Shown here piece by piece: positions 7,177 to 45,755 of a stretch of DNA of 64,000 nucleotides. The stretch's first letter is position 1, and each line of letters begins with the position of its first letter. Both the position numbers and the translations under genes were made by a program. The notes beneath the pieces were generated by a model. That model saw only the letters and a program-made list of their open reading frames with translations. It ran no database searches and was not told the origin of the DNA. Origin of the DNA: Pseudomonadota bacterium (GTDB taxonomy: Bacteria > Pseudomonadota > Gammaproteobacteria > QQUJ01). The DNA lies in contig QQUJ01000018.1 in assembly GCA_008501635.1 (NCBI GenBank), positions 248,680 through 312,679 of the forward strand. The letters are read 5' to 3'.

Positions 7177-8667
7177 TCACGCCGTCTTTTCCAGGTGACG
7201 ACCCAGTAACAGTTCCAGCGTGTACCGCACGCCAAAACCGGTTACATCGGTGGGGATGTGGCCGAGGCCGCCGCGGTTGCGACCGGCGCCAAGATCGATA
7301 TGTACCCAGGGGATCGCCGCATCGATAAAGCGCTGCAGGAAACGTGCGGCGAGGATGTGATCCGCCTCGCCCTCCAGCGTGCACTGCTTGATGTCGGCGA
7401 TGGTGCTCTCCAGCGCATCGTCGAAATCCTTGTCGTTGGGAAAGGTCCAGACTCTTTCACCACTGTGACGTCCCGCCTCGATCAATGGAGCATGGTAGTC
7501 GTCGCGATTGGTGACGATGCCGCTGTAACGGGTGCCCAGGGCGTGGATACAGGCACCGGTGAGCGTCGCATAGTCGATGATCAGTCGTGGTTTTTCCTTG
7601 CTGGCAATGGCCAGGGTATCGGCGAGCACCATACGGCCCTCGGCATCGGTGTGCACCACCTCGATGGTCGTACCGTTGCTGGCCGTGACGACGTCGTTGG
7701 GTTTGTAGGCGCGGGGCCCGATATGGTTCTGTGCCAGCGCCAGCCAGCAGTCGATGGGAAATCCGACACGCAGCTGTGTGAGTGCCAGCAGCGTACCCAA
7801 CGCTACCGCACTGCCCTCCATGTCTTCGTGCATGTTGAACATGCCGCGCGCCGGTTTGAGGTTCACGCCCCCGGTATCGAAACAGAGTCCCTTGCCCACC
7901 AGGGCGATCGGTTTCCCTTTCGGCTTGGCGGGGCGGTAACGCAGTTTTACGATGCCGGCATCACGCTCTTCGCTGCCCTGCACGACCGCGAGAAAGGCCC
8001 CTGCTTTACGCCGCTTGAGTTGTCCAATGTCGTAAAACGTCATCTGCCAGCCGTGTTGTCGGGCGAGTCGGGTAACCTCCTTGCGATAGAGCGCCGGTGT
8101 CAATGTGTTGCCAGGCATCAGCGTCAGCCGCCGTGCCAACTCGTTGCCCGCTGCCTCGGCGAGCAGTCGATTGCCGGCGATGCGTGTTTTGATGTTGAAG
8201 AGCGCGATGGTCTGTAGTTTTTGCGGCGCCTTGGCTTTGCTCTTGAAATGGGGAAGATCGACGCAGCCTGCCAGTGACGCTGCGACCAGCGCCTCCGCGA
8301 CGCGCTCGTTGAGTCGTTCGTCTTCGAGGCAAACCATGACCGGCAGGGCCGCGACTGTATTTTGCGCTGATTCGGCCACAGCCTTGCGCGCTGCGGTCAG
8401 CAGCATATAGGTATCCGACTCGTCGGCGACCGCGAGTGCAACGACGCGGGTCGCACGGTTGTTGGACAGGTCGAACACGACGATCGAGCCGTTGGCGAAG
8501 TCGGATGCGCGCTGTTTGATTCGTCGCAGCATCTCTGCCCCATACGGCAATTCCTGTTTCCGTACGGCGTTCAGATCGGGCGGTAACGCCAGCACCACGG
8601 TCGCGTACCGATCGAGGGTGCGTTCGCTGGGTAGTCGAGCGGATTGGCGGATGCGGATTGGTTTCAT
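7177..8667 (-). CDS. M17 leucyl aminopeptidase family protein (PepA/PepB-like)
   Basis: It carries the NTDAEGR signature (VVHTDAEGRMVLAD) and GKGLCFDTGG, at 496 aa. An AAGG Shine-Dalgarno precedes the ATG. Confidence 0.8.
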   Translation of the reverse strand: MKPIRIRQSARLPSERTLDRYATVVLALPPDLNAVRKQELPYGAEMLRRIKQRASDFANGSIVVFDLSNNRATRVVALAVADESDTYMLLTAARKAVAESAQNTVAALPVMVCLEDERLNERVAEALVAASLAGCVDLPHFKSKAKAPQKLQTIALFNIKTRIAGNRLLAEAAGNELARRLTLMPGNTLTPALYRKEVTRLARQHGWQMTFYDIGQLKRRKAGAFLAVVQGSEERDAGIVKLRYRPAKPKGKPIALVGKGLCFDTGGVNLKPARGMFNMHEDMEGSAVALGTLLALTQLRVGFPIDCWLALAQNHIGPRAYKPNDVVTASNGTTIEVVHTDAEGRMVLADTLAIASKEKPRLIIDYATLTGACIHALGTRYSGIVTNRDDYHAPLIEAGRHSGERVWTFPNDKDFDDALESTIADIKQCTLEGEADHILAARFLQRFIDAAIPWVHIDLGAGRNRGGLGHIPTDVTGFGVRYTLELLLGRHLEKTA

Positions 8668-8699
8668 GCCTTATTACCCTTGAGTGACGAAATCGCGCA

Positions 8700-8725
8700 G
8701 CAACTGCGGATCATACGGCAGTTGC
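8700..8725 (+). promoter_or_regulatory. dyad-symmetry element (GCAACTGC-N10-GCAGTTGC) upstream of the aceE-derived ORF; a candidate operator
   Basis: A perfect 8-bp inverted repeat read from the sequence. Its function is unknown. Confidence 0.2.
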
Positions 8726-8950
8726 ACTGAAGCTGCAGTGCATCTCGACGGCCTTGACTATACTGGACTGGAAAGGTGCCGGGCGCTGTTCGAACAATCG
8801 ATCTCGCTCGTCGCGTTCAAGTGTATGCGCGGATCCCGTTGGACGATGGATGATACTGGGGAACCGTAGATCGTGTTAGTTGCGTTGCGGTGTGGTCCGC
8901 GCCCAGTACGCGCCGCAACGCATCGATCGCTGGCATCCGAGAGGTGGTTC

Positions 8951-10852
8951 ATGGCAGTCCATCCCGACGTAGATCCCCAGGAAACCCGCGAGTGGCAGAA
9001 TGCCCTCGAGGCTGTACTGGAACGCGAGGGAACGGAGCGGGCGCACTATCTGCTGGAACAACTGATCGACAAGGCACGGCGCTCGGGCGCCTATCTTCCC
9101 TGCAGCGCGCGCACCGCCTGCATCAACACCATTCCTACGAACCAGGAGGAGCGCAATCCGGGCGATAGGGAACTGGAACGACGCATCCGCTCCATCATCC
9201 GTTGGAATGCAACCGCCAAGGTGGTGCGCGCCAACCGCAAGAGCAGCGAACTGGGTGGACATATCGCCAGCTTTGCCTCGGCCGCAACCCTCTACGATGT
9301 GGGATTCAATCATTTCTTCCGCGCCCCGAATGCCGAGCAGGCAGGTGATCTGGTTTTTATCCAGGGCCATTCCGCGCCGGGCATCTACGCCCGTGCCTAT
9401 CTGGAGGGGCGCATCGACGAGACGCAGCTGGAGCGTTTCCGCCAAGAGGTAGCGGGCGGCGGTCTCTCATCCTATCCACACCCCTGGCTGATGCCCGATT
9501 TCTGGCAGTTTTCCACGGTCTCCATGGGTCTCGGGCCGCTGACGGCGATCTATCAGGCACGTTTCATGAAATACCTGGAACATCGTGGAATCATCGAAGC
9601 GTCCAACCACAAGGTCTGGGCGTTCATGGGCGATGGCGAGATGGATGAACCGGAGTCGCTGGGAGCGATTGCTTTGGCGGGGCGCGAAGGGCTCGACAAT
9701 CTCATCTTTGTCATCAACTGCAACCCCCAGCGCCTGGACGGTCCGGTGCGCGGTACCGGCAAGATCATCCAGCAGCTGGAATCCGATTTTCGCGGCGCTG
9801 GATGGAATGCCATCAAAGTGATCTGGGGCTCGTATTGGGATCCGCTTCTGGCGCGCGATACCAAAGGACTGCTGCGCCGGCGTATGGAGGAAGCGGTCGA
9901 TGGCGAATATCAGAAATTCAGGGCCAAAGGCGGCAAGTACACACGCGAGCATTTCTTTGGCAAATTCCCCGAACTCAGGGAGATGGTGGCCAATCTCACC
10001 GATGAGGATATCTGGCGTCTCAATCGCGGAGGCCATGATCCCAACGAGATCTATGCGGCCTACGCCGCCGCGGTCAAGCACACCGGGCAGCCAACGGTCA
10101 TCCTCGCCAAAACGGTGAAGGGTTACGGCATGGGTGAGGCGGGCGAGGGACAGAACATCACCCACCAGCAGAAGAAACTCGACGACGAGTCGTTGCGGCA
10201 TTTCCGCGATCGCTTCAGGATCCCGGTCACCGATGACCAGACCGGCGCAGTGCCGTTCTACAAGCCACCCGCAGACAGCCCTGAGATTCAGCACCTCCAA
10301 CAGTCTCGTGAGAAACTGGGCGGTTACCTGCCGCTGCTTTCATTCCTGATGAAAGCGGCGGTGGCAGCCCTGAAGCGGTACGAGAGTTTCACCGCCTCGC
10401 GCGATCCGGGCGGCGCGCGGCTCATTTTGAAACGCTACTGCCATCTCGGCATCACCGTCGATACGCCCAACGGATTGGTGATGCCGGTGTTGCGGGATGT
10501 CGATCAAAAAGGTCTGTGGACATTGACCGAGGAGCTTGCCGGAATCAGTGACAAGGCGCGCGTCGGCAAGCTTTCACCCATGGAGATGCAGGGAGCGACG
10601 TTTACCGTTTCCAGTCCGGGTGGTATCGGTGGCGTCGCGTTCACGCCCATCGTCAATGTGCCGGAAGTGGCCATCCTTGGTGCCTCGCGCGCTGCGCTCA
10701 AGCCGAGCTGGCGGGGTGGCGAGTTCGTACCCAGGCTGCAGCTGCCGTTGTCGCTCTCTTATGATCACAGGGTCATCGACGGTGCCGCCGCAGCGCGATT
10801 CAGTGCGTTTCTCGCCACGTTGCTGGGTGACATCCGGCGGTTGCTGCTGTGA
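8951..10852 (+). CDS. aceE/aceF: chimeric ORF. The N-terminal ~480 aa of pyruvate dehydrogenase E1 (AceE) are fused in frame to the C-terminal ~175-aa catalytic domain of dihydrolipoamide acetyltransferase E2 (AceF). This is probably an internal-deletion remnant, a functional pseudogene of aceEF.
   Basis: Residues 1-478 (MAVHPDVDPQETREW...REKLGGYLP) align with E. coli AceE 1-~480. The remainder (FLMKAAVAAL...SLSYDHRVIDGAAAARF...DIRRLLL) is the E2 catalytic domain with the DHRxxDG motif. The transketolase-like Pyr/C domains of E1 and the lipoyl and E3-binding domains of E2 are absent. The junction is near nt 10335-10345. Confidence 0.75.
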   Translation: MAVHPDVDPQETREWQNALEAVLEREGTERAHYLLEQLIDKARRSGAYLPCSARTACINTIPTNQEERNPGDRELERRIRSIIRWNATAKVVRANRKSSELGGHIASFASAATLYDVGFNHFFRAPNAEQAGDLVFIQGHSAPGIYARAYLEGRIDETQLERFRQEVAGGGLSSYPHPWLMPDFWQFSTVSMGLGPLTAIYQARFMKYLEHRGIIEASNHKVWAFMGDGEMDEPESLGAIALAGREGLDNLIFVINCNPQRLDGPVRGTGKIIQQLESDFRGAGWNAIKVIWGSYWDPLLARDTKGLLRRRMEEAVDGEYQKFRAKGGKYTREHFFGKFPELREMVANLTDEDIWRLNRGGHDPNEIYAAYAAAVKHTGQPTVILAKTVKGYGMGEAGEGQNITHQQKKLDDESLRHFRDRFRIPVTDDQTGAVPFYKPPADSPEIQHLQQSREKLGGYLPLLSFLMKAAVAALKRYESFTASRDPGGARLILKRYCHLGITVDTPNGLVMPVLRDVDQKGLWTLTEELAGISDKARVGKLSPMEMQGATFTVSSPGGIGGVAFTPIVNVPEVAILGASRAALKPSWRGGEFVPRLQLPLSLSYDHRVIDGAAAARFSAFLATLLGDIRRLLL

Positions 10853-10910
10853 CGATCGCGAGGTAATCGTTTGCATGAACACCGAATTCACCGCTTAACA
10901 GGAGTATGGT

Positions 10911-13900
10911 GTGCACAATCCCAAGCAAGAAAAGCAGGAAACCCTCGAGCGCGTTGTTGAACTGGTACGCAAACGCTTCAAGGGTGAGCAGGCCGCACAG
11001 ATCGCGGCGTTTCTGGCCCACTACTATGCGAAGACGCCACCCGAAGATCTCCGGTTGTGGCGTGATCAGGATCTTTATGGTGCTGCCATCGCACAGTGGA
11101 ATCAGCTGCAGCGACGCGCATCGGGTTCCCATCTCATCAACGTCTACAATCCAGATTTCGAGGAGCACGGTTGGGAGTCGACCCATACCATCGTCGAGCT
11201 GGTCCTCGAGGACATGCCGTTTCTGGTCGACTCGGTCAGCATGGAGCTGGCGCGTCATGGGCTGACCATACATCTGATCATTCATCCCGTGATCTCGGTT
11301 CGCCGCGACAGGGCGGGTCACCTGCTCGCAGTCGTCGGCAGCGACGACGAAAATGCGGTCCGCGAATCCATCATGCACTTCGAGATCGATCGACAGACCG
11401 ATCGTGCCGTGCTTAAAACGGTGCGTAAAGAGCTGGGCAGGGTGCTGATGGAGGTGCGTGCAGCCGTCGAAGATCAGCATACCATGCGGGCAAAAATGGC
11501 CGAGATCGTCGACGAGCTGGAAAGCAACCCGCCGCCCCTCGATGCCGACGCGGTTGAAGAGGACAAAGCGTTCTTGCGCTGGGCGATCGATGAACACTTT
11601 ACGTATCTCGGTTACCGCGCTTACGACCTGATTCGAGGTAAGGGCGAAGATGCGCTCAAGGGTGTCGGCAGTTCGGGAATCGGGATATTGCGTGCTTCGC
11701 AGTCGGGCGCTTCACGCAGTTTTGCGGTATTGCCGCCGGAGCTGCAGAAGCTGGCTCGTGAGCCGATACTTCTGATTCTTACCAAGAGTAACTCGCGCTC
11801 GCTTGTTCACCGCTCCGCCAACATGGATTACATCGGCATCAAGCGGTTCGGTGCCAAGGGCAAAGTGATTGGAGAACACCGCTTCCTCGGTCTCTACACT
11901 TCGTCGGCCTACAGTCAGTCTCCGCGCCGCATTCCGGTGCTGCGCCACAAGGTTGAGACGGTGCTCAAGAAATCCGGTAGTCCACCGGACAGCCATGATG
12001 GCAAGACCCTGATGCATATTCTTGAGGGGTATCCGCGCGACGAGTTGATCCAGACCCCCGAGGATGAGTTGTTCGAAACCTGCATGGGTATTCTCAATCT
12101 GCAGGAGCGCCAACGGGTGCGCTTGTTTGTGCGTCGCGATCCCTTCGGGCGCTTCGTCTCGTGTCTCGTCTATGTGCCGCGCGACAGCTACAACACCGAG
12201 TTGCGAGTGCGCATGGGCGAAATCCTGAAGCGCGCCCTCGGCGGCACCGATATCGAGTTTACCGTGCAGATCTCCGACTTGATGTTGGCGCGCGTGCACT
12301 TTATCGTGCGCACCGCGCCGGGGCAGATCCCCGAATTCGATGTGGCAGAGCTGGAAGCCGATCTCGTCGAAGCCACCCGCAGTTGGCAGGATATGCTATT
12401 TCGCACACTCATCGAGCATTACGGCGAGGAAAAAGGGAATCGACTGCATCAGAAGTATCGCATGGCCTTTCCGGCGGGGTATCGCGAGTACTTCACGTCG
12501 CGAACCGCAGTCTACGATATCGAGCATATCGAACGACTCGATGACGAGAAGAGCCTGGAGATGTTGCTCTATCGACCGCTGGAAGCTCCCAGTGGAGCGT
12601 TGCGCTTCAAGCTCTATCGACGCGGTGAGCCGATCTTCCTCTCCAAGACGCTTCCGATGCTGGAAAACATGGGGGTTGAGGTTGTGTTCGAGCACCCCTA
12701 CCAGGTACAGCCGGAAGGCGAGGGTGCGGTATGGATACACAACTTCGGCCTCCAGCATGCCGCCGAGCTGGAGTTTGCCGCCGAGGAGATCAAAGGCATT
12801 TTCCAGGATGCCTTCGCTCGGGTGTGGCTGGGAGATGTGGAGAACGATGCTTTCAATCGCCTGGTGCTGAGCGCCCAACTCGACTGGCGCGAATCCACGC
12901 TGCTGCGTGCCTACACGCGCTACCTGCGGCAGGTCAGCGCGAATTTCAGTGAGAGCTATATCGCGGCAACCCTCGAAGCGAATGCCGGTATCGCGCGGCG
13001 GCTGGTACAGTTGTTTCATGTGCGCTTCGATCCGCACAAGCGCAAGGGGGCGGAGGAGCGTGCCAATAAGCTGATCGAGCAGATCAACACCGCGATTGAT
13101 TCGGTGAGCAGTCTCGATGAGGATCGCATTCTACGACGCGTGCTCGCGGCAATGCAGGCGACCCTGCGCACCAACTACTACCAACATCTGCGCAAGGGCG
13201 TTCCCAAGTCCTATATCTCGTTCAAATTCAGTCCCAAAGAAATACCCGACATGCCGGCGCCCAAGCCGGCTTACGAGATCTTTGTCTACTCACCGCGAAC
13301 CGAAGGTGTGCATCTGCGCGGCGGCAAGGTGGCGCGCGGCGGCTTGCGCTGGTCGGACCGACGCGAAGATTTCCGCACCGAGGTCCTCGGTTTGCTAAAA
13401 AGCCAATTGGTGAAGAATGCGGTGATCGTTCCGGTTGGGGCCAAGGGCGGTTTTGTGGTCAAACAGCCGCCGGTGGAAGGTGGGCGCGAGGCGCTGCAGG
13501 AGGAGGTGAAGTTCTGCTACCGCAGTTTCATCCGCGGCCTGCTCGACGTTACCGACAACCTGGTGGGCGGAAAGGTGGTAGCGCCGCAGGATGTCGTACG
13601 TCACGATGATGATGATCCCTATCTGGTGGTGGCGGCGGACAAGGGCACGGCTACCTTCTCCGATCTTGCCAATGAGGTAGCGGGCGAGTACGGGTTCTGG
13701 CTGGGTGATGCGTTTGCCTCGGGCGGTTCGGCCGGCTACGACCACAAAAAACTGGGCATTACGGCGCGTGGCGCGTGGGAATCGGTGAAACTCCAGTTTG
13801 CCGAAATGGGTCTCGATATGGTCAACCAAACCTTCACGGTCGTCGGCATCGGCGATATGGCTGGAGATGTGTTCGGCAACGGTCTGCTCTACTCGCGCAA

Positions 13901-15752
13901 CACCAAGTTGGTTGCTGCCTTCAATCATCTGCATATCTTTATCGATCCTGATCCCGATCCGGAGACGAGTTTCAAAGAGCGCGAGCGCCTGTTCCAACTG
14001 CCGCACTCGACCTGGGAGGACTATGACCGTACGGTGCTCTCACCAGGTGGTGGGATTTTCTCGAGGCGCGACAAGAGCATCCTGCTCAGTCCGGAAGTAC
14101 AGCGTTTGATCAATGTCAGCGAGGCGCGGCTGGCACCCAACGAATTGATCCGCGCCATTCTGCGCATGTCCTCGGATCTGTTGTGGAGTGGTGGCATCGG
14201 CACCTTCGTCAAGGCCAGCCATGAGAGCCATGCCGATGTCGGCGATCGCGCCAATGATGCGATACGTGTCGATGGACGTGAACTGGGTTGTGCGGCCGTC
14301 GGCGAAGGCGGCAACCTGGGTCTGACGCAGCTGGGGCGCATCGAATACGCTGCCCGTGGGGGACGGGTCAACACCGATTTCGTCGACAATTCGGGTGGTG
14401 TGGACTGTTCCGACCACGAGGTCAACATCAAGATCCTGCTCGACAACGTGGTGGCCAACGGCGATATGACCCTCAAACAGCGCAACCAGCTGATGGCCAG
14501 GATGGCCGACGAGGTGTCCGATCATGTACTGGAACATAACCGCCACCGCGCGCAGGCGATCAGCATGATCGAGGTGCAGGCGTTTCAGTTGCTCGACGAG
14601 CAGAGCCGTTTCATGCATGCCCTCGAACGCGAAGGACTGCTCGATCGCGCCCTGGAGTTCCTGCCCAACGATGAGGTCCTGGCGGAACGGCAAACGGAAG
14701 GTCGGGGCCTGTTGCGACCGGAAATTTCGGTACTGCTTGCCTACTCGGCTATCGTGCTCTATCAGCAACTGTTGGCCAGCGACATCGCCGATGATCCTTT
14801 CTTTGTCCATGAGCTGCGCGACTATTTTCCACAACCGCTGCGTGAACGGTTCGCCGAGGAGATGATGAGTCATCGGCTGCATCGCGAAATCATAACCACC
14901 CAGGTGACCAACAGTATGGTCAACCGCGTCGGCATTACCTTTATCCACCGCCTGCGCGAGGAGACGGGTGCCGAGCCGGGCGATATTGCGCGTTCCTACA
15001 CGGCCGCGCGCGAGGTGTTCGCGGTACGAAACCTTTGGAATCAGATCGAGGCTCAGCAAAGTGGTGTTGCCGCACCATTGGTGATACAGATGTTTCTGGA
15101 GTGCGGTCAATTGGTGGAGCAGGCGACACGCTGGTTCCTGCGCCGTTTGCGGCAGCCGTTGGCGATCGATGAAACGGTGGCGCGTTTTTCCGCCGGTGCC
15201 CAGGCGCTTGCTCAGGTGCTCCCGGGAGTGGTCGTGGACGTCGATCGCGAGGAGTTGGAGCAAGCGGCGCTTGAATACACGACCGGGGGTGCGGATGAGT
15301 CGCTGGCCAGGCAACTGGCGTCGCTGCGCATGCTCTATGCCGCGCTCGATGTCGTGGAAGTGAGCGAGACGAGCGGATATTCCATCCAGGATGTGGCCTA
15401 TGTTTACTTCCATCTCGGTGATCGTCTGGGTCTGCATTGGCTGCGCGATCAGATTGCCTCGCTCAGCACCGCGAACCACTGGCAGGCAATGGCCTGCTCT
15501 GCGCTGCACGATGATGTCACCACCAAGCAGGGGGCACTGGTCGCGAGCATCCTGCGCCAAGCCAAGCGCAGCAAAAAGATCGATCTGCTGATCGAGAACT
15601 GGCTGGTGGACAACGAGGCGGCGACGCGACGCTGGCAGCGCATCCTGGCCGATTTGCACACCGCTGGCAGTCCCGATCTTGCAATGCTCTCGGTTGCGGT
15701 ACGTGAAGTGCGCGATCTCGCCCAAGCCAGTGCTCAGGTGACGACGAAGTGA
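10911..15752 (+). CDS. gdhB: NAD-specific glutamate dehydrogenase, large (~180 kDa) Bac_GDH family
   Basis: 1613 aa. Its length and domain order match Pseudomonas GdhB, and it has the central GDH catalytic core (GGLRWSDRREDFRTEVLGL..., GGSAGYDHKKLGITARGAWE). It uses a GTG start after an AGGAG Shine-Dalgarno and sits only 58 nt after the aceE/aceF chimera. Confidence 0.85.
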   Translation: MHNPKQEKQETLERVVELVRKRFKGEQAAQIAAFLAHYYAKTPPEDLRLWRDQDLYGAAIAQWNQLQRRASGSHLINVYNPDFEEHGWESTHTIVELVLEDMPFLVDSVSMELARHGLTIHLIIHPVISVRRDRAGHLLAVVGSDDENAVRESIMHFEIDRQTDRAVLKTVRKELGRVLMEVRAAVEDQHTMRAKMAEIVDELESNPPPLDADAVEEDKAFLRWAIDEHFTYLGYRAYDLIRGKGEDALKGVGSSGIGILRASQSGASRSFAVLPPELQKLAREPILLILTKSNSRSLVHRSANMDYIGIKRFGAKGKVIGEHRFLGLYTSSAYSQSPRRIPVLRHKVETVLKKSGSPPDSHDGKTLMHILEGYPRDELIQTPEDELFETCMGILNLQERQRVRLFVRRDPFGRFVSCLVYVPRDSYNTELRVRMGEILKRALGGTDIEFTVQISDLMLARVHFIVRTAPGQIPEFDVAELEADLVEATRSWQDMLFRTLIEHYGEEKGNRLHQKYRMAFPAGYREYFTSRTAVYDIEHIERLDDEKSLEMLLYRPLEAPSGALRFKLYRRGEPIFLSKTLPMLENMGVEVVFEHPYQVQPEGEGAVWIHNFGLQHAAELEFAAEEIKGIFQDAFARVWLGDVENDAFNRLVLSAQLDWRESTLLRAYTRYLRQVSANFSESYIAATLEANAGIARRLVQLFHVRFDPHKRKGAEERANKLIEQINTAIDSVSSLDEDRILRRVLAAMQATLRTNYYQHLRKGVPKSYISFKFSPKEIPDMPAPKPAYEIFVYSPRTEGVHLRGGKVARGGLRWSDRREDFRTEVLGLLKSQLVKNAVIVPVGAKGGFVVKQPPVEGGREALQEEVKFCYRSFIRGLLDVTDNLVGGKVVAPQDVVRHDDDDPYLVVAADKGTATFSDLANEVAGEYGFWLGDAFASGGSAGYDHKKLGITARGAWESVKLQFAEMGLDMVNQTFTVVGIGDMAGDVFGNGLLYSRNTKLVAAFNHLHIFIDPDPDPETSFKERERLFQLPHSTWEDYDRTVLSPGGGIFSRRDKSILLSPEVQRLINVSEARLAPNELIRAILRMSSDLLWSGGIGTFVKASHESHADVGDRANDAIRVDGRELGCAAVGEGGNLGLTQLGRIEYAARGGRVNTDFVDNSGGVDCSDHEVNIKILLDNVVANGDMTLKQRNQLMARMADEVSDHVLEHNRHRAQAISMIEVQAFQLLDEQSRFMHALEREGLLDRALEFLPNDEVLAERQTEGRGLLRPEISVLLAYSAIVLYQQLLASDIADDPFFVHELRDYFPQPLRERFAEEMMSHRLHREIITTQVTNSMVNRVGITFIHRLREETGAEPGDIARSYTAAREVFAVRNLWNQIEAQQSGVAAPLVIQMFLECGQLVEQATRWFLRRLRQPLAIDETVARFSAGAQALAQVLPGVVVDVDREELEQAALEYTTGGADESLARQLASLRMLYAALDVVEVSETSGYSIQDVAYVYFHLGDRLGLHWLRDQIASLSTANHWQAMACSALHDDVTTKQGALVASILRQAKRSKKIDLLIENWLVDNEAATRRWQRILADLHTAGSPDLAMLSVAVREVRDLAQASAQVTTK

Positions 15753-19189: not shown

Positions 19190-19918
19190 ATGAGTCGAGA
19201 GGATCTGCATCTGCGTCCGGTGGCTGCAACGCTGGATTGCGATCACTGCGCTGTGCGCCGCCGCTGTCTCCCTGCGAGGTTGGAATCGGATGATCTTCGC
19301 GCCTTGAGTGATATCGCAGTACGACACGAACGCAAGCGCAAGGGCACGATGCTCTACCGCCAGGGCGAGGCGTTTCGTTCGCTATACGCCATTCGCTCAG
19401 GATCGGTCAAGACTTACGGGCTGACAGAAGAGGGCGAAGCGCAGATTACCGGGTTTCATCTGACGGGCGAGGTGGTCGGGATGGACGCCATCGGCAGCAC
19501 CCTCCATCCCTGCGCCGCTGAGATGCTTGAGGATACCTGGATCTGCGAGCTGCCCTACGCACAGCTCGCGGAGTTGGGCATACGCTTGCCGAGCCTGCAA
19601 CGTGAATTGATGAGCATCATGGCGCAGGAGATTCGCAATGAGGAGCATGCCCTGATGTTGGTGCGAGGTTTACGTGCCGAGCAGCGCGTCATGCGCTTTA
19701 TCAATAGTCTCTTTGAACGCATGCGCCAGCGCTTGGGCGATATCAACGAGATTCCATTGGTAATGACGCGCGAGGATATCGCCAACTACCTGGGCCTGGC
19801 ACCCGAGACACTGAGCCGGGCGTTGGCGAAATTGCGCGATGATGGCTTGATAAGGGTGAAGTCAAGGAGCATCGAAGTGTTGGACCGCGCGGCGATGCAT
19901 CGCCTTGTGCAGTGTTGA
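19190..19918 (+). CDS. fnr: FNR/Anr-type oxygen-sensing transcription regulator (Crp/Fnr family)
   Basis: N-terminal Cys cluster C17-x2-C20-x5-C26 plus an internal Cys. A cNMP-like domain and a C-terminal HTH (EIANYLGLAPETLSRAL) give a close Anr-like alignment. Confidence 0.85.
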   Translation: MSREDLHLRPVAATLDCDHCAVRRRCLPARLESDDLRALSDIAVRHERKRKGTMLYRQGEAFRSLYAIRSGSVKTYGLTEEGEAQITGFHLTGEVVGMDAIGSTLHPCAAEMLEDTWICELPYAQLAELGIRLPSLQRELMSIMAQEIRNEEHALMLVRGLRAEQRVMRFINSLFERMRQRLGDINEIPLVMTREDIANYLGLAPETLSRALAKLRDDGLIRVKSRSIEVLDRAAMHRLVQC

Positions 19919-23066: not shown

Positions 23067-23759
23067 TCAAGTTACGGGTTCAGCTGCCACTGCGGCCGCG
23101 GGACGCTGCGCGACACGACGTTTTTGCCGCCGGTCGATCAGGTTCTTGAGCGCAATGAGAAATCCGAGACCGATGAAGGCGCCGGGTGGCAGCATGGCCA
23201 ACAGAAAGCCCTTGTAGTTCTCAAACACCGTAACCGTAACACCCCTGAAAGGCTCCCCGAACATGAGAGCCGCCTGTGCCAGCAGCGTGCCCTGGCCCAA
23301 AAGCTCACGCATGCCGCCCAGCAGCACCAAACCGAGGGTAAAACCCAATCCCATGGTAAAGGCATCGACAAAGGAGCGAACTACGTTATTTTTCGAAGCA
23401 AAGGCCTCGGCACGACCGATAATGACGCAGTTGGTTACGATCAGCGGGATGAAGATGCCAAGGATCTTGTAGAGATCATAGAAGAAGGCGTTCATCGCCA
23501 ATTCGATAGCGGTGACGAACGAGGCGATCACCATTACGAACACGGGAATGCGGACCTCGGGGCGCACCAGGTTGCGGATCAACGATACAGTAACGTTGGA
23601 ACCGATCAGCACCAGCATTGTGGCCATCCCCAGTCCCAGTCCGTTGACGATGGTGCCGCTGACCGCCAGCAGTGGGCAGAGCCCCAGCAGTTGAACGACG
23701 GCCGGGTTGTTGCGCCATAAGCCGTCACGAACCAGCGTGCCATAGTCGCTGTTAGCCAT
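23067..23759 (-). CDS. rnfE: Rnf/Rsx electron transport complex subunit E
   Basis: [29 protein letters not shown] matches the RnfE N-terminus. It is a polytopic membrane protein and the last gene of the rnfABCDGE operon. Confidence 0.85.
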
Positions 23760-24393
23760 GTTTCGCCTCCTGAGGTTTGACCGGTGCGAAGAGCTCGTCG
23801 CGATGCGCATTGAAGTAGATCAGCGCCTTGCGCACGGCATCGACCACGATCCGCGGTGTGATCGTTGCGCCGGTGAACTGATCGAAGACACCGCCGTCTT
23901 TTTTCACTTTCCATTGCATCATGGGCGGATTGCCCAACGAACGCCCGATAAAACTGTGTACCCAATCTGAACGTTCCACTTCGATCTGGTCGCCCAGACC
24001 CGGTGTCTCTTTGTGGCTGATGATGCGAATGCCCGCCAGTGCACCGTCGAAGTTGACGGCAATCAGTATTCGAATTGGACCGGCATAACCATTGGGCGCC
24101 ACGGCAGTGAAGATGACAGCGACAGGCGTGTCGGCGTTGCGTGCTCGATAGACCGTCACGGTTTCTGCAGTTCCCAATTGCTCGGGTGCCGCGATGCTCA
24201 GAGTATCCGCCAGCGGATCGTTGTCATAGCGAGTGGCGGGCACCAGCGCCTGCAGACTGCGCAGCAGCGCCATGCGTTCATTTTCGATGATCTGCTCGCG
24301 GGTGGTGTCGTAGGTTACGGCGACCAGTGTCGTACCGATTATGGCGAACAGGGTCAGCACCAACGATGAGCCGAGCATGTGCCGGATCGTCAT
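23752..24393 (-). CDS. rnfG: Rnf/Rsx complex subunit G (FMN-binding)
   Basis: RnfG family; the start is at [10 protein letters not shown] (ATG 24391-24393). It overlaps rnfE by 8 nt. Confidence 0.8.
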
Positions 24394-25430
24394 TGCACCT
24401 TCCTCCCGGTGCCGAAGACCCGTGGTTGGGTGTAGTAGTCGATGGTCGGCGCGGCCATATTCATCAACAGTACGCCGAAAGCGATGCCGTCCGGGAAACC
24501 GCCCCAGGTACGGATCAGGAAAGTGATCAGCCCGACGCCGAAGCCGAACAGCAGGCGCCCGCGGGGTGTAGTACTGGCGGTTACCGGATCGGTGGCGATA
24601 AAAAAGGCGCCCAGTACAGTAGCGCCGGAGAGGAGGTGCACCAGCGGCGAGATACTGGACTCGGGATACAGGAGATGGAGGATGGCCGCTGGCCCCAACA
24701 GCCCGACCAGCAATCCTGCAGGGATCTGCCAGGCGATTGCCTTGCGCCACAGCAGGAAGAGTCCACCCGCTGCGTAGGCTGCGTAGACCCATTCCCAACC
24801 TTTGCCCCCCAGGTTGCCAAAGACCGGTTGTTGGAGAATCTCCCCAACGCTGCGGTTCATGTCGAGCTGCGTCTTGAGCGTATCCAGGGGTGTGGCCATG
24901 GTCAGGGCGTCGACGGCTATGCCATCAGGCATGAGACCGAGAAAGACGATGCCCAGGGTGTCGTGGAAATCGAGGGTCACCTCGAGCAGCAGCTGCGGCG
25001 GCATCCAGCGGGTCATTTCAACCGGAAACGAGATGATCAGCACCACGAAACCGACCATGGCCGGGTTGAACGGGTTATAACCCAGGCCACCGTACAGGTG
25101 CTTGGCGACGACAATCGCAAAAGCGATGCCCACTACGGTGAGCCACCAGGGGCTCAGCGGCGGGAGCGACAGCACCAGCAGAACCGCAGTCAGCAACGCG
25201 CTGAGATCGCTCAGGAAGGGCCACAGCGGACGCCGGCGGATAGCGAGCAGAGCTGCCTCGCAAACCACAGCGGTAGTAATCCCGAGTGCAAGCTTGATGA
25301 GGATGGCCCACCCGAAGATCAGGTAGTACGCGGCGATGCCAGGCACCAACGCGAGGAGTACGACACCCATGGCGCGAGTGACCGAGTTGGGCGAATGCAG
25401 ATGGGGCGAGGTGGCGGTTTCGAACTCCAT
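24390..25430 (-). CDS. rnfD: Rnf/Rsx complex subunit D
   Basis: 346-aa polytopic membrane protein of the RnfD/NqrB family, overlapping rnfG by 4 nt. Confidence 0.85.
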   Translation of the reverse strand: MEFETATSPHLHSPNSVTRAMGVVLLALVPGIAAYYLIFGWAILIKLALGITTAVVCEAALLAIRRRPLWPFLSDLSALLTAVLLVLSLPPLSPWWLTVVGIAFAIVVAKHLYGGLGYNPFNPAMVGFVVLIISFPVEMTRWMPPQLLLEVTLDFHDTLGIVFLGLMPDGIAVDALTMATPLDTLKTQLDMNRSVGEILQQPVFGNLGGKGWEWVYAAYAAGGLFLLWRKAIAWQIPAGLLVGLLGPAAILHLLYPESSISPLVHLLSGATVLGAFFIATDPVTASTTPRGRLLFGFGVGLITFLIRTWGGFPDGIAFGVLLMNMAAPTIDYYTQPRVFGTGRKVQ

Positions 25431-27068
25431 CTACGACGACTCCTCATCGGGCGGCGCTGGCGCTTCGTGATCGGGTGGCGCGGTGCCGGAGCGACGTTTC
25501 TCCAGCTCGGTGATGCGCAGGCGCGACTCGGCGCTCGGTGCACCCTGAGCGACATTGCCCTGGGGCGCAGCGCTATGCACACCGGCGGGGGCCTTCTGCG
25601 CTTCTTCGCGTTTCTTGGCCAGCGCAGCCTCTTTGATGATGCGCATGCGCTCCTCTTTTTCGCGTTTATCGCGGTCGATGCGCTCCTGCTTGGCGTCGTG
25701 GCGACGCCGCGACTCCTCCATGAAGTGTTGCTCGCGCTCCTGTGCCCAGATCTCGTTCTTGGCGAAGCGGAAGTACTGCACCAGCGGAATGTTGCTGGGA
25801 CAAACGTAGGAACAGCAGCCGCATTCGATGCATTCGAAGAGGTTGTGATCCTGAACGCGATCGAAATCTTTGGCGCGCGAGTGCCAGTACATCTGTTGGG
25901 GCAGTAAATGGGCGGGACAGGCTTTGCTGCAGCGACCACACCGTATGCAGGGTAAGACGGGGTTGCCGGAAGCGAGTTCGTCGCGGCGTGCCGCCAGGAC
26001 GCAGTTGGCCGCCTTCACCACCGGGATCGCATCGCTATGGAGCGCAAAGCCCATCATCGGGCCACCCAGTATCAGGCGGGTCACGTCTTCACGGTAGCCA
26101 CCGCATTGGGCGATGAGATCACTGACCGGGGTGCCGAACAGCACCTCCAGATTCCGCGGTTCAGCCACGCCTTCACCGGTCACAGTGATGATGCGCGAGA
26201 TCAGCGGCTCAGCCAATGCGATAGCGTTGTAGACTGCCCGTGCTGTGGAAAGGTTGTGGCAGACCACTCCGATCTCCAGCGGACGTTTGCCGCTGGGGAC
26301 CTCTTTGCCGGTCAGCACCTTGATAAGTTGGCGCTCGCCTCCTGTGGGATAGCGAGTGGGCAGCCGGACAACGCTGATCTGGGGATCGCCCGCCGCTTCA
26401 ACAGCCGCTTTCATGCTGTGGAACGCCTCGGGTTTATTGTCCTCGATGCCGATTACGCACCGCCCCGCCTGGAGGGCGTGGCGCATGATGAGCAGACCCT
26501 GCAGCACCTGGCTGGCGTAGTGACGCATCAGCATGTCGTCGGAAGTGATGTAGGGTTCACACTCCGCGCCGTTGATGATCAGCGTTTCAACCACCTTGCC
26601 CTCACCGGGATTGAGTTTGATGAAGGTGGGAAAGGCGGCACCGCCCAGGCCGACGATGCCCGCATCGCGGATATGCTGGCGTAGTTCCTTGGGCGTAAGT
26701 CGGGTGAAGTCGTCAATCGGATGCCGCGGGCTGATCCAGGTCTCTGCGCCGTCGGGTTCGATGACGATACAGGTGGCGTTGAGCCCCGATGGGTGCGGTA
26801 CCGGATGCAGTGCAATCTCCACAACGCGGCCTGAGGTCGGTGCGTGGATCGGGGCGCTGATACTGCCGCTGGCGCGAGCGATTATCTGCCCCTTGAGTAC
26901 ACTGTCCCCGGGTTGCACCGTGGGTTCGGCGGGAGCGCCAATGTGCTGCGCGACCGGCAGAATGAGCCGCGCAGGCAGGCGCGCTGTTTCCAGCGGGCGG
27001 CTCAGGCTCAGCTCTTTGCGCCCCGGCGGGTGGATACCCCCGCGGAATTTCCACAGACGCTGCAACAT
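25431..27068 (-). CDS. rnfC: Rnf/Rsx complex subunit C (NADH-binding, two [4Fe-4S] motifs)
   Basis: Starts [15 protein letters not shown]; two CxxCxxCxxxCP ferredoxin motifs and a charged low-complexity C-terminal tail. Its ATG overlaps the rnfB stop (TAATG). Confidence 0.85.
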   Translation of the reverse strand: MLQRLWKFRGGIHPPGRKELSLSRPLETARLPARLILPVAQHIGAPAEPTVQPGDSVLKGQIIARASGSISAPIHAPTSGRVVEIALHPVPHPSGLNATCIVIEPDGAETWISPRHPIDDFTRLTPKELRQHIRDAGIVGLGGAAFPTFIKLNPGEGKVVETLIINGAECEPYITSDDMLMRHYASQVLQGLLIMRHALQAGRCVIGIEDNKPEAFHSMKAAVEAAGDPQISVVRLPTRYPTGGERQLIKVLTGKEVPSGKRPLEIGVVCHNLSTARAVYNAIALAEPLISRIITVTGEGVAEPRNLEVLFGTPVSDLIAQCGGYREDVTRLILGGPMMGFALHSDAIPVVKAANCVLAARRDELASGNPVLPCIRCGRCSKACPAHLLPQQMYWHSRAKDFDRVQDHNLFECIECGCCSYVCPSNIPLVQYFRFAKNEIWAQEREQHFMEESRRRHDAKQERIDRDKREKEERMRIIKEAALAKKREEAQKAPAGVHSAAPQGNVAQGAPSAESRLRITELEKRRSGTAPPDHEAPAPPDEESS

Positions 27069-27613
27069 TAGCCGGCCGATTCGAGTTGGGCAGGCATGGG
27101 CCACTTCCATTCGCCGATGCCTGGATTGACCGGCTCCATAGAGATGCAGTCCACCGGACAGGGCTCGACACACAGCTTGCAGCCCGTGCAGTAGTCCGGG
27201 AGGACGGTGTGCATCTGCTTTGCGGCGCCGAGAATGGCGTCCACCGGGCAGGCGCGGATACAGGCGGTACACCCCACGCAAAGCGCTTCGTCGATCCGCG
27301 CCACCGACGGTACCCGGTTCGCGGTCGCCTCATCGAGCGCCACGGGTTCGCGGCCCAACAGGTCGGCCAATCCGATCATGGCCGCGTCCCCCCCAGGCGG
27401 GCAGAGATTGATCGCGGCTTCTTCACCGGCGATAGCTTCGGCGTAGGGTCGGCAGCCCGGGAAGCCGCACTGCCCGCATTGGGTCTGAGGAAGCAACGCG
27501 TCGATCTGATCCACCACCGGGTCGCTTTCGACCTTGAAGCGCAGGTCGGCATAACCGAGCAGCAAGCCGAACACGGCGGCGAGAGCACTCAATGCAATAA
27601 TGGCCTCCAGCAT
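27068..27613 (-). CDS. rnfB: Rnf/Rsx complex subunit B (ferredoxin-like)
   Basis: An N-terminal TM helix, a CGQCGFPGC cluster and two 4Fe-4S ferredoxin motifs. Confidence 0.85.
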
Positions 27614-33029: not shown

Positions 33030-33110
33030 TCGCCGCTCAAGGCGGTGATGGCCGTCTGGCGTTCGCTGTAACCTGCTAAAATCGCCCGAAACCCCGCATT
33101 GAGGTCGGAA

Positions 33111-42161: not shown

Positions 42162-45100
42162 ATGGCCACCGTTAACAAGATCACGTTGGAGGGTAATGAG
42201 GCGGCAGCCGCCATTGCACACCTTTGCAGTGATGTCATCGCTATCTATCCCATAACTCCGTCCTCGGCAATGGGGGAGTTCTGCGACGCATGGTCGGCCG
42301 AAGGCCGGGGCAACCTGTGGGGCAGCGTTCCTGAGGTGATCGAGATGCAGAGCGAAGCGGGTGCGGCAGGTGCCATTCATGGCGCGCTGCAAACTGGTGC
42401 ACTGGCGACCACCTTCACCGCCTCGCAGGGGTTGCTGCTGATGATCCCGAATATGTACAAGATCTCGGGTGAACTGACATCGGCGGTGATGCACGTCTCC
42501 GCGCGCGCGCTGGCGGCGCACGCCCTCTCCATTTTTGGTGATCATAGCGACGTGATGTCAGTGCGCTCGACCGGCTGGGCGCTGTTGGCTTCCAACTCCG
42601 TGCAGGAGGTGATGGACCTTGCCCTGGTTGCTCATGCGGCCACACTGGAAGCCCGCATGCCGATTCTCCATTTTTTTGATGGCTTCCGCACTTCGCATGA
42701 GGTGAGCAAGATCGATGAGGTCGGCAGAGACGTGGTGCGTGCAATGATTCGTGACGACCTTGTCCAAGCCCATCGCGCACGCGGTTTGTCTCCCGAGCGC
42801 CCGGTTATCCGCGGTACGGCGCAAAACCCTGATGTCTATTTCCAGGCCCGTGAGGCATCCAATCCCTATTACGCGAAGATGCCGGCCATCGTCCAGAAGA
42901 CGATGGACAGATTTGCCGAGTTGACAGGCCGCCAGTATCACCTGTTCGATTATTTCGGTGCAGCTGATGCCGAGCGGGTGATCGTCATGATGGGCTCGGG
43001 CGCTGAGGCGGTCGAGGAGGTAGTCGAGACGCTCAACGATCAGGGCGCAAAGGTGGGTCTGCTCAAGGTGCGGCTCTATCGGCCTTTTGCAACGCAGGCA
43101 TTTCTTGCCGCACTGCCCGCAACGGTCAAGCGGATCGCTGTGCTCGATCGCAATAAAGAGCCGGGTGCTGATGGTGAACCGCTATACAAGGATGTGGTAA
43201 CGGCGTTGGCCACCGACCTTACCGGCGCCGCACCTCGATTCAGCACTCTACCGCGCATAGTGGGTGGCCGTTATGGATTGGCATCAAAAGAGTTCAATCC
43301 CCAGATGATCAAGGGCATCTACGATGAATTGGCCAAAGAGGCGCCCAAGAACGACTTCACCGTGGGTATCATCGATGATGTTTGCTACACCAGCCTCGAA
43401 ATAGATGCCGATTTCCAGGTCGATAACGTCGAAGGCCTGACCCGTGCTGTCTTTTACGGTCTGGGATCGGACGGCACGGTGAGCGCCAACAAGAACACCA
43501 TCAAGATCATCGGCGAAGAGACCGATCTGTACGCCCAGGGGTACTTTGTCTACGACTCGAAAAAGGCGGGCGCCGTAACGGTGTCGCACCTGCGTTTCAG
43601 TCCCAGGAAGATTCGTTCCAGCTACCTGATCAGCGACAACGAAGCCAACTTTGTTGCGTGCCATCAACCAGGCTTCCTGGAGCGGTATCCGATGCTCGAC
43701 AAAGCGGCTCAAGGCGCGGTGTTTTTGCTTAACTCCCCTGTCGGCCCTGAGGCGGTATGGAATACCTTGCCGCGCCGCATGCAGCAACAGATTATCGACA
43801 AGCAGATCAGCTTCTATACGATCGATGCGATTGCCGTGGCTCGTGAAACCGGTATGGGGGCACGCATCAACACTGTGATGCAGACGTGCTTTTTCGCCAT
43901 CTCGGGCATTCTGCCCAAAGATCAGGCCATCGCTTCAATCAAGCACGCGGTCGAGAAGACTTATGGCACCAAGGGCAAGGCGATCGTTGAGCGCAACTTT
44001 GCAGCTATCGACACGACATTGGCCCGCATGTTCCAGGTTGAGGTTCCGGATGCCGTCACCAGCACCATGGAACTGACGCCACCGGTTTCTGACAAGGCGC
44101 CGGATTTCGTCAAGAAGGTGACGGGCGAGCTGATTGCCGGTCGCGGTGATGCCTTGCCGGTGAGTCTGATCCCGATCGATGGGACGTTCCCTGTCGGGAC
44201 AGCACGCTGGGACAAGCGCAACCTGGCATTGGAAATTCCGGTCTGGGAGGAGGATCTGTGCATCTTTTGCGGCAAATGTGCCATGGTCTGCCCGCACTCG
44301 GCCATTCGTTGCAAGGTCTTTCAGGCGGACGACGTGGCGAATGCCCCGCAGACCTTCAAGTACACCGAGGTAAAGGGCAAGGAGTTCGACGAGGGTACGC
44401 TGATTACCTATCAGGTGTTTCCGGAGGATTGCACCGGTTGCACCTTATGCGTGGATATCTGCCCTGCCAAGAGCAAAGAGAACACTTCGTTCAAGGCGCT
44501 CAATATGGCACCGCAAGCCCCGCTGCGTGAGCAGGAGACTGAGAATCTGGAGTTTTTCTACACCCTGCCGAGTTTCGACCGCACTCAGGTGCGCCCCAAT
44601 ACGCTGAAGAGTGCAATGCTGTTCGATACGCTCTTTGAGACCTCGGGCGCCTGTGTCGGCTGCGGTGAAACCCCCTATGTGAAGCTGGTCAGCCAGTTGT
44701 TCGGGGACCGCGCTATTGTCGCCAACGCTACCGGCTGCTCCTCCATCTATGGTGGGAATCTGCCGAGCACGCCGTGGGCTGCAAACGCCGATGGGCGCGG
44801 CGTCGCTTGGTCTAATTCACTCTTTGAGGACAACGCGGAATTTGGACTGGGCTTCCGATTGACGATCGATAAGCAGCGCGAGTATGCGAACGAACTGATA
44901 CAGACACTGGCAGACCAGATCGGCGCGGAACTGATCGACGGGCTGCTCAACGCGGATCAGTCCGATGAAGCCGGTATCCATGAGCAACGCGAGCGGGTGG
45001 CCGAGCTCAAGTCGAAGATTCAGGGCATCGATCGGCCTGAGGCTCGCGAGCTGGAGAGCGTTGCAGACATGCTGGTCAAGAAGAGCGTCTGGATCATCGG

Positions 45101-45755
45101 CGGGGATGGCTGGGCCTACGACATCGGTTTCAACGGCCTCGACCACACTATGGCCTCCGGTCGCAATGTCAACATTCTGGTGCTCGACACCGAGGTCTAT
45201 TCCAATACCGGTGGTCAGGCCTCGAAGGCGACGCCGATCGGGGCCGTGGCAAAATTCGCCATGGGCGGTAAGGAGTTGGGCAAGAAAGATATCGTCCAGA
45301 TTGCCATGAGCTATGGTCATGTCTACGTGGCGCAGGTGGCCTATGGCGCGAAAGATGTGCAAACGCTCAAGGCGTTTCTCGAGGCGGAGGCCTATGATGG
45401 GCCGTCGCTGATCATTGCCTATTCACCCTGTGTCGAGCATGGTGTGCCGATGGCGCAGAATCACCAACAGCAGGAGCTGGCGGTCAACACCGGACACTGG
45501 AACCTGTTGCGCTACGATCCGCGGCGCCTCAAAGAGGGCAAGAACCCCCTGCAACTCGATTCCAAGAAACCCTCCATACCGCTCAAGGAGTTTGTGGGTT
45601 CCGAGACGCGCTTCAGCATGTTGTGGCGGACCGATGCCGAAAAGGCGGATAGATTGCTGGGTATCAGCCAACGCAAGGTCGAGGACCGCTATCATTACTA
45701 CGAGCAGCTGGCCGGACTCGACTACGGTAATGAGGAGGAAGAGGCGCCCAATTAG
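42162..45755 (+). CDS. nifJ: pyruvate:ferredoxin (flavodoxin) oxidoreductase, single-polypeptide type
   Basis: 1197 aa. Its N-terminus is of the YdbK/NifJ type (LEGNEAAAAIAHLCSDVIAIYPITPSS), and it has two 4Fe-4S ferredoxin motifs (CIFCGKCAMVCP, CTGCTLCVDICP) and a TPP-binding region. A GAGGGGA Shine-Dalgarno precedes the ATG. Confidence 0.9.
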   Translation: MATVNKITLEGNEAAAAIAHLCSDVIAIYPITPSSAMGEFCDAWSAEGRGNLWGSVPEVIEMQSEAGAAGAIHGALQTGALATTFTASQGLLLMIPNMYKISGELTSAVMHVSARALAAHALSIFGDHSDVMSVRSTGWALLASNSVQEVMDLALVAHAATLEARMPILHFFDGFRTSHEVSKIDEVGRDVVRAMIRDDLVQAHRARGLSPERPVIRGTAQNPDVYFQAREASNPYYAKMPAIVQKTMDRFAELTGRQYHLFDYFGAADAERVIVMMGSGAEAVEEVVETLNDQGAKVGLLKVRLYRPFATQAFLAALPATVKRIAVLDRNKEPGADGEPLYKDVVTALATDLTGAAPRFSTLPRIVGGRYGLASKEFNPQMIKGIYDELAKEAPKNDFTVGIIDDVCYTSLEIDADFQVDNVEGLTRAVFYGLGSDGTVSANKNTIKIIGEETDLYAQGYFVYDSKKAGAVTVSHLRFSPRKIRSSYLISDNEANFVACHQPGFLERYPMLDKAAQGAVFLLNSPVGPEAVWNTLPRRMQQQIIDKQISFYTIDAIAVARETGMGARINTVMQTCFFAISGILPKDQAIASIKHAVEKTYGTKGKAIVERNFAAIDTTLARMFQVEVPDAVTSTMELTPPVSDKAPDFVKKVTGELIAGRGDALPVSLIPIDGTFPVGTARWDKRNLALEIPVWEEDLCIFCGKCAMVCPHSAIRCKVFQADDVANAPQTFKYTEVKGKEFDEGTLITYQVFPEDCTGCTLCVDICPAKSKENTSFKALNMAPQAPLREQETENLEFFYTLPSFDRTQVRPNTLKSAMLFDTLFETSGACVGCGETPYVKLVSQLFGDRAIVANATGCSSIYGGNLPSTPWAANADGRGVAWSNSLFEDNAEFGLGFRLTIDKQREYANELIQTLADQIGAELIDGLLNADQSDEAGIHEQRERVAELKSKIQGIDRPEARELESVADMLVKKSVWIIGGDGWAYDIGFNGLDHTMASGRNVNILVLDTEVYSNTGGQASKATPIGAVAKFAMGGKELGKKDIVQIAMSYGHVYVAQVAYGAKDVQTLKAFLEAEAYDGPSLIIAYSPCVEHGVPMAQNHQQQELAVNTGHWNLLRYDPRRLKEGKNPLQLDSKKPSIPLKEFVGSETRFSMLWRTDAEKADRLLGISQRKVEDRYHYYEQLAGLDYGNEEEEAPN

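Follow-up and report, generated by a model that had tools for sequence, protein, structure and literature searches.

What does an open reading frame (ORF) represent that begins as the E1 subunit of pyruvate dehydrogenase (PDH) and ends as the E2 subunit? The ORF in question lies in a 64,000-nucleotide stretch of DNA from a Pseudomonadota bacterium (Gammaproteobacteria; GCA_008501635.1, contig QQUJ01000018.1, positions 248,680 to 312,679 of the forward strand), which we analysed as a whole and denote the window. From an ATG at position 8951 it runs uninterrupted for 633 codons plus a stop. An earlier note on this DNA had described it as an in-frame AceE/AceF chimera, and the ORF list together with profile and structure alignments bears this out. 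We are highly confident that the ORF is a deletion-derived fusion pseudogene, recently fixed, of an ordinary aceE-aceF operon; a deletion with mapped breakpoints that recurs in many independent assemblies, missing domains and locus-specific relaxation of constraint carry this reading. The chimera is no new enzyme architecture or mechanism, and a fusion pseudogene is a well-known kind of object.

The ORF was compared with the contig loci of its three closest intact relatives, L091, L092 and L093 (AceE 94%, 84% and 83% amino acid identity, respectively). Its features are as follows.

8939..8947, forward strand: Shine-Dalgarno-like GAGAGGTGG, from the sequence and the alignment of upstream regions.
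8951..10852, forward strand: chimeric aceE'-'aceF ORF, very probably a fusion pseudogene, from the ORF list, Pfam and NCBIfam placement and PDB alignments.
8951..10333, forward strand: aceE-derived part, codons 1-461 (N-terminal segment and PP domain, which binds thiamine diphosphate, ThDP), from blastn against L091 and alignment to E. coli E1.
10327..10334, no strand: deletion junction with an imperfect 8-nt microhomology, from base-by-base comparison with both L091 flanks.
10334..10852, forward strand: aceF-derived part, the last 172 codons of a 435-codon aceF and the stop, a truncated chloramphenicol acetyltransferase (CAT)-like catalytic domain, from blastn against L091 and PF00198 and TIGR01348 placement.

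The E1 part, estimated at about 478 residues in the earlier note, is 461 residues long by DNA comparison with L091. The estimate of about 175 residues for the E2 part was near the exact figure of 172; this part begins at AceF residue 264 of L091. Another possible start, a GTG at 8873, lies upstream of the ATG. The ATG at 8951 is the true start, because homologues begin MA(A/V)HPDVDPQE. GAGAGGTGG ends 3 nt ahead of this ATG, with its GAGG core 6 nt upstream, and is common to the intact relatives; the predicted translation start signals of the chimera are kept. The product was deposited as 'MAG: hypothetical protein DWQ09_11245 [Proteobacteria bacterium]' (KAA3627735.1; protein P0001 in our search).

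The neighbourhood of the ORF is that of an ordinary operon. L091, L092 and L093 all show, at the same site as in the window, the order M17 aminopeptidase (minus strand), aceE (886 aa), aceF (435-437 aa) and an NAD-specific glutamate dehydrogenase gene of ~1613 aa; their AceF consists of one lipoyl domain, an E3-binding domain and the catalytic domain. The corresponding features in the window are these.

7177..8667, reverse strand: M17 leucyl aminopeptidase (pepA), the divergent ancestral upstream neighbour, same in L091-L093.
10853..10910, forward strand: 58-nt spacer between the remnant and gdh, near-identical to the aceF-gdh spacer of L091.
10911..15752, forward strand: large NAD-specific glutamate dehydrogenase (gdh), 1613 aa, intact and constrained, the ancestral neighbour 3' of aceF, from Pfam GDH domains (identical gene in locus L001) and synteny.

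The large dehydrogenase gene starts 58 nt downstream of the ORF and no lpdA follows, as the earlier note had said. Its suggestion that the absent lpdA belongs to the collapse did not hold: lpdA is absent after aceF in L091, L092 and L093 too, and its absence is ancestral and no sign of collapse, because the intact relatives also run from aceF directly into gdh. Among distant aceEF loci with enough flanking DNA, an lpd-like gene directly follows aceF in 22 of 42 and does not in the other 20. In the divergent pepA/aceE promoter region we also observed ~39 nt (window 8832-8870) that are lacking in L091; L092 and L093 have unrelated sequence there.

Alignment with L091 located the deletion. By blastn, window positions 8501-10337 match L091 151-1949 (93.4%) and, collinear with this first block, window 10327-11200 match L091 4041-4914 (93.9%). 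The two blocks overlap by 11 nt in the window, and what is missing from it relative to L091 is one contiguous block of 2,102 bp, comprising aceE codons 462-886 and the stop, the 35-nt spacer and aceF codons 1-263. The ~2.6 kb first given for the loss was too high, probably because that estimate assumed an E. coli-type AceF with three lipoyl domains; AceF of the relatives, at 435 aa, has one. The microhomology reads CCTGCCGC on the aceE side and CCTGACGC on the aceF side of L091 (CCTG(C/A)CGC, 7/8 match), with an exact shared CGC at 10332-10334, where we placed the crossover. With the breakpoint marked by a slash, the L091 flanks read ...GGTTACCTGCCGC/AGCGG on the aceE side and ...GCGCCTGACGC/TGCTTTC on the aceF side. 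The profile alignment that the earlier note had proposed, combined with the L091 DNA, sets the junction at codon 461/462 (...REKLGGYLP/LLSFLMKAAV...), and the junction-spanning peptide of the chimera is GGYLPLLSFLMK. In L091 aceE and aceF lie in different frames, which a deletion of 2,102 nt, by its length class, brings back into register. A search for long direct repeats between the two L091 breakpoints found nothing beyond chance-level matches; hence there is nothing for an assembler to collapse. A hairpin at 10319-10335 was not above chance in a pattern scan. The mechanism would be microhomology-mediated illegitimate recombination or replication slippage.

These data suggest the following course of events. 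Starting from an ordinary aceE-aceF operon between pepA and gdh, one event between the microhomologies CCTGCCGC and CCTGACGC would have removed 2,102 bp, a length that by chance would have restored the frame and so given a 633-codon fusion. The fusion product would keep just the PP domain of E1 and about three quarters of the catalytic domain of E2. The remnant would then have gathered damaging substitutions while the deletion became fixed in a near-clonal population, with PFOR (pyruvate:ferredoxin oxidoreductase) or other routes presumably covering acetyl-CoA formation.

The junction is found throughout the population from which the window derives. At least 24 contigs that we read encode exactly this 633-aa protein (31 index blocks list it); they have the same neighbours and were assembled from separate runs (SRR8556129, many SRR36519xxx, SRR18243706). 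A second allele, P0121, which differs by A111T, Q130K and A482T, occurs on 9 more contigs assembled from different runs, SRR26328199 and SRR23332755 among them, which brings the junction to at least 33 contigs read and two alleles. Over 7-20 kb, twelve loci of the same species match the window at 99.85-100% identity. The earlier note had proposed looking for the same junction in close relatives: it is present in all 12 of these loci, whereas L091-L093 are intact. The deletion is thus fixed in a nearly clonal natural population. An exact search of the 41-nt junction in Joint Genome Institute (JGI) metagenome contigs gave no matches, and P0001 is listed only from NCBI and Logan sources. As a separate observation, the run that contains L093 with its intact aceEF at 83% amino acid identity (SRR23332760) and that of the fusion-bearing locus L095 (SRR23332755) have nearby accession numbers, and the two lineages may co-occur in one study or habitat.

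An assembly or engineering artefact, which the earlier note had left as an alternative, would mean that the real genome still contains the 2.1-kb block and the assembler collapsed it, or that the DNA comes from a construct. A clean in-frame fusion can look artificial a priori, and the source record is a metagenome-assembled genome (MAG). The junction was, however, assembled independently in at least 33 contigs across separate runs of several Sequence Read Archive accession series and in two alleles, and the intact operon contains no repeat beyond chance across the breakpoints. Moreover, no intact AceE of more than 94% identity exists in the protein collection, divergence from L091 is even on both flanks (93-94%), the remnant's own excess of substitutions (described below) needs evolutionary time, and the sources are environmental assemblies, not constructs. 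We rejected this explanation, whose probability we regard as negligible.

The fusion is confined to this lineage among the sequences that we searched. Among 5.8 billion proteins just one cluster at 90% identity, P0001 itself, covers the whole chimera. The other matches listed, including P0002 (94%), cover the AceE part only, and nearly all of them are AceE proteins of 880-890 aa; an intact AceE with more than 94% identity to the chimera was absent from the protein collection searched. The nearest named AceE relatives, from Sedimenticola, Ca. Vondammii and Thiohalocapsa, are 76-77% identical. A scan of representative-genome contigs returned neither the source species nor any fusion-bearing match; the best was 76% identical and all matches ended at query residue ~461.

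To define the domains kept and lost, we placed the chimera on the profiles NCBIfam TIGR00759 (aceE), NCBIfam TIGR01348 (long-form aceF) and Pfam PF00198, applying curated whole-protein cut-offs. Residues 4-481 correspond to positions 3-481 of the 885 of TIGR00759, with a score of 782.6 bits, below the curated equivalog cut-off of 859.9, and the chimera is not a full-length AceE match. At the other end, residues 455-633 correspond to positions 57-232 of the 232 of PF00198 and residues 452-633 to positions 406-587 of the 587 of TIGR01348, where the aceF score of the chimera is 256 against a cut-off of 552.1. Structure-based alignments agree: E. coli E1 (1L8A) residues 7-465 align with chimera residues 6-463, and residues 63-243 of the A. 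vinelandii E2 core (1DPC) align with 453-633, leaving 1DPC residues 1-62 without counterpart. The PP domain is present (PF00456 and PF28598 matches), with GDG at 227-229 and NCN at 256-258 aligned to the E. coli motif, and the catalytic motif DHRVIDG is kept at residues 605-611, in agreement with the DHRxxDG pattern.

The Pyr (middle, PF17831) and C-terminal (PF22613) domains of E1 were not found in the chimera by Pfam. All other proteins listed in the AceE homologue search have PF17831, and PF22613 is lacking from just three of them, which are truncated; the DNA coding for both domains falls inside the 2,102-bp deletion. Pfam likewise found no Biotin_lipoyl or E3_binding match in the chimera; the 435-aa AceF of the relatives carries both. 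The earlier note had named the E1 Pyr and C-terminal and the E2 lipoyl and E3-binding domains as missing, which is correct, but the E2 catalytic domain has also lost its first ~56 profile positions, leaving about three quarters of it.

In transketolase-type ThDP enzymes two subunits share each active site, one contributing its PP and the other its Pyr domain, and a lone PP domain is unable to activate ThDP. In E. coli E1 the activator is probably Glu571, a residue of the Pyr domain. For the E2 side, work on the 2-oxoglutarate dehydrogenase OdhA/KGD indicates that the acyltransferase active site is formed between protomers, and a construct without the N-terminal beta-strand and the next helix gave no functional trimer (PMC10415282). 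The E2 fragment of the chimera is without the N-terminal strand/helix region and more. Judged from the sequence, the chimera would be unable to perform either PDH half-reaction, because the E1 Pyr and C-terminal domains, the lipoyl domain, the E3/E1-binding domain and the E2 trimerising strand and helix are all missing.

We then asked how the remnant has evolved since the deletion. When the window is compared pairwise with L091, the ratio of nonsynonymous to synonymous substitution rates (dN/dS) reaches 0.179 in the aceE part and 0.256 in the aceF part; the long-term values in intact lineages are 0.04-0.06 and 0.07-0.12, respectively; for the control gene gdh it is 0.085 against L091 and 0.10-0.13 in the long term. 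Amino acid changes were polarised with L092 and L093 as outgroups. This analysis assigned 19 changes to the window branch and 4 to the L091 branch in the aceE part, and 8 and 0 in the aceF part. With the expected number derived from the gdh rate scaled by long-term dN ratios, the remnant shows 27 window-branch changes where 4.1 are expected, a 6.6-fold excess (Poisson P = 6e-14). The per-residue change rate of the remnant also differs from that of gdh (Fisher P = 2e-4).

The sites that changed support the same conclusion. Of the 218 AceE columns with at least 98% conservation across 114 intact homologues, 10 differ in the window (Y57C, P188S, R220H, L259P, N269T, E275Q, K324R, Y339F, K366E and Y448H), compared with a mean of 1.08 and a maximum of 5 in the intact proteins; at AceF columns at least 95% conserved among 49 homologues the window deviates at 7 of 54 (mean 0.94, maximum 6). 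The control PFOR deviates at 3 of 412 near-invariant columns, all of them conservative changes (A to S, L to M, L to I) and a number in the normal range. L259P, which is lineage-specific, sits directly after NCN (INCN-P-QRLDG; NCNLQ with L261 in E. coli). In E. coli E1 the Mg2+ ligands are D230, N260 and Q262, of which the last two help to bind Mg2+-ThDP, and L259P falls between the equivalents of N260 and Q262. In the E2 part, L556P comes after the conserved SS of the core (SS-L-GG motif) and adjoins what is presumably the catalytic Ser. Together these data demonstrate that constraint is relaxed at the remnant locus specifically. On the fusion pseudogene reading, which we consider highly probable as a whole, the remnant would be decaying, with damaging substitutions accumulating at a near-neutral rate since the deletion. 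The presence of intact aceE-aceF at the syntenic site in relatives and the relaxed constraint on the remnant support the lineage loss of this PDH operon that the earlier note had put forward.

Several observations weigh against a pseudogene. The ORF is still open and in frame, with a Shine-Dalgarno sequence and a start codon. The dN/dS of the window branch is ~0.3 and not 1, which would also fit weak residual constraint. The gdh control itself shows 15 changes on the window branch against 5 on that of L091 over 1145 residues, such that the excess in the remnant may be partly lineage-wide. Polymorphism within the population points towards relaxed constraint, at 3:1 nonsynonymous to synonymous in the remnant against 3:5 in gdh, but these counts are tiny. 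A branch value of ~0.3 nevertheless fits neutrality over about the last quarter of the branch since the split from L091, a span equal to about 25-36 neutral substitutions in 1.9 kb. Stop-creating changes make up 3.2% of the possible substitutions in this GC-rich ORF, and the probability that no stop arose is ~0.3-0.45; multiplied by the one in three chance of a deletion in frame, this gives ~0.09-0.17 under neutrality, and the open frame is unremarkable because of this joint chance. As an observation in its own right, the 15 to 5 asymmetry of gdh hints at a lineage-wide nonsynonymous rise, for instance through a small effective population size, and fits the near-clonality.

Could the chimera instead be functional, with a new or residual role, for example ThDP-binding or regulatory, and be kept by selection? 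The open ORF with its start signals, its fixation in the population, a branch dN/dS below 1 and the retained GDG...NCN and DHRVIDG motifs are what such a role would predict. The search of 5.8 billion proteins, however, found this architecture in no other lineage, near-invariant positions are hit about ten times as often as in intact homologues, and new prolines adjoin motifs related to the cofactor and to catalysis. Neither catalytic unit is structurally complete, and an open frame is expected at ~0.09-0.17 under neutrality. We consider selection for function very improbable; a PP-domain/E2-core polypeptide with an acquired non-catalytic role is speculative.

A different possibility is that the protein is useless and the frame is kept open for the sake of gdh, translation of the remnant shielding gdh, read from the aceE promoter, from Rho-dependent polarity. 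In favour of it, L091 shares both the adjacency of aceF and gdh and the 58-nt spacer, the deletion is an in-frame one, and the many missense changes have not been accompanied by any stop. A pattern scan found neither a terminator-like nor a sigma-70-like promoter site between the remnant and gdh, which suggests that gdh may depend on the aceE promoter. Such consensus scans are, however, weak evidence, and around the ORF promoter and terminator counts were no higher than in shuffled sequence. The giant glutamate dehydrogenase is a neighbour only in the closest relatives and at one other locus, and the open frame is well enough explained by chance. Frame protection thus appears quite unlikely. 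If it were true, selection would act against nonsense and frameshift changes, not missense, explaining a fixed, in-frame and stop-free deletion. We continue with the interpretation of the ORF as a fusion pseudogene.

What does the loss mean for the metabolism of the host? The earlier note had pointed to three further elements in the window, a PFOR gene, Rnf genes and an FNR-type regulator, and all of them were confirmed.

42162..45755, forward strand: NifJ-type PFOR, 1197 aa, intact, from Pfam.
25431-27281, reverse strand: RnfC.
23752-24798, reverse strand: FMN-binding RnfG-like protein.
19190-19918, forward strand: Crp/FNR-family regulator, with an N-terminal CX2CX5C and an internal Cys.

The CX2CX5C with an internal Cys is the Fe-S ligand pattern of oxygen-sensing FNR, and the equivalent gene of L092 also lies after argG. 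The proposal that PFOR is this lineage's replacement for PDH was not upheld: an 85% PFOR orthologue with the same local synteny is present in GCA_054681815.1, a binned MAG that also holds the intact aceEF of L092, and PFOR is not a lineage-specific replacement because the two coexist there. Plausibly, PFOR is an ancestral parallel route that made the loss of PDH tolerable.

The deletion might also have taken a redundant copy, PDH being kept through another aceEF or a pdhABC-type operon elsewhere; this concerns the physiological consequence and not the nature of the locus. Many proteobacteria are generally known to have more than one 2-oxoacid dehydrogenase complex. Against redundancy, no further AceE above 94% identity to the remnant's lineage is present in the collection, each of the three closest relatives shows one aceEF, located at this site, and neither lpdA nor a second PDH is present within the 64-kb window. 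A search with the deleted C-terminal 425 aa of AceE (L091), aimed at a relocated copy, gave a best match of 75% but missed its own source, P0002, because candidate selection favoured fragments, and it carries no weight on either side. We regard a second PDH as unlikely.

For annotation, the ORF should be flagged as an aceE/aceF pseudogene, not as PDH E1 or E2, since domain-based pipelines could credit this uncultured gammaproteobacterium with a PDH that it probably lacks at this locus. The locus would also be a clean, datable case of the recent loss of an enzyme central to aerobic metabolism, in a lineage where PFOR, Rnf and FNR are still in place and whose sister lineages keep both routes.

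Around PFOR we noticed class III polyhydroxyalkanoate (PHA) synthase genes (phaE, phaC-like) and a thiolase (window 33099-35209 and 39032-40273). In relatives (L096-L098) the genes flanking PFOR encode a PhaR-like regulator (PHB_acc domains), a phasin and a thiolase, and this synteny is conserved, which suggests a conserved neighbourhood leading from pyruvate through acetyl-CoA to polyhydroxybutyrate (PHB). Elsewhere in the window, a 592-aa ORF of ordinary composition (54587-56365, reverse strand) has no Pfam match (best E = 0.027); its C-terminal part contains, by eye, RxxxR ... N-x-S-x-x-G, reminiscent of PilZ domains that bind cyclic di-GMP, and it adjoins an MshE-type ATPase (56732-58525; T2SSE and MshEN domains). 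No tRNA, tmRNA or Rfam family at gathering threshold was found in window positions 1-64000.

How does the chimera compare with known proteins? Its residues 1-461 are orthologous to the N-terminal segment and PP domain of AceE (TIGR00759; 1L8A), with 94% identity to the nearest intact AceE. In contrast to AceE, it is without the Pyr and C-terminal domains, scores below the cut-off and has mutated near-invariant residues; the AceE part ends near what we take to be the boundary between the PP and Pyr domains. Its last 172 residues are orthologous to the AceF catalytic domain (TIGR01348; 1DPC/1EAA), of which they cover the C-terminal three quarters, DHRVIDG included. Unlike AceF, the chimera has neither a lipoyl nor an E3/E1-binding domain, its catalytic domain is short of the first ~56 profile positions, and its AceF score is far below the cut-off.

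To our knowledge, the actinobacterial OdhA/KGD is the only functional fusion of E2-type and E1-type proteins. It likewise combines acyltransferase-type and ThDP-dependent decarboxylase-type parts in one polypeptide (PMC10415282; PDB 8P5S-8P5X), and it matches the E2 part of the chimera weakly. In OdhA/KGD, however, an N-terminal E2 precedes a complete C-terminal E1, both are catalytically complete, and the architecture is conserved across a phylum (Actinobacteria). The chimera has the reversed order, with both parts truncated, occurs in one near-clonal population and is decaying, and its score of 38 bits on NF008907, against a cut-off of 878, places it outside the OdhA/KGD family. The statement in the earlier note that a fusion of the E1 PP domain and the E2 core is not a known functional architecture is therefore correct for this order and truncation. 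The chimera agrees best with the general class of microhomology-mediated intra-operon fusion pseudogenes, with which it shares a single contiguous deletion relative to syntenic intact genes, a short imperfect microhomology where the breakpoints lie, loss of essential domains and later relaxed selection. What makes it notable within this class is the open in-frame fusion and the central-metabolism enzyme concerned; nothing essential differs.

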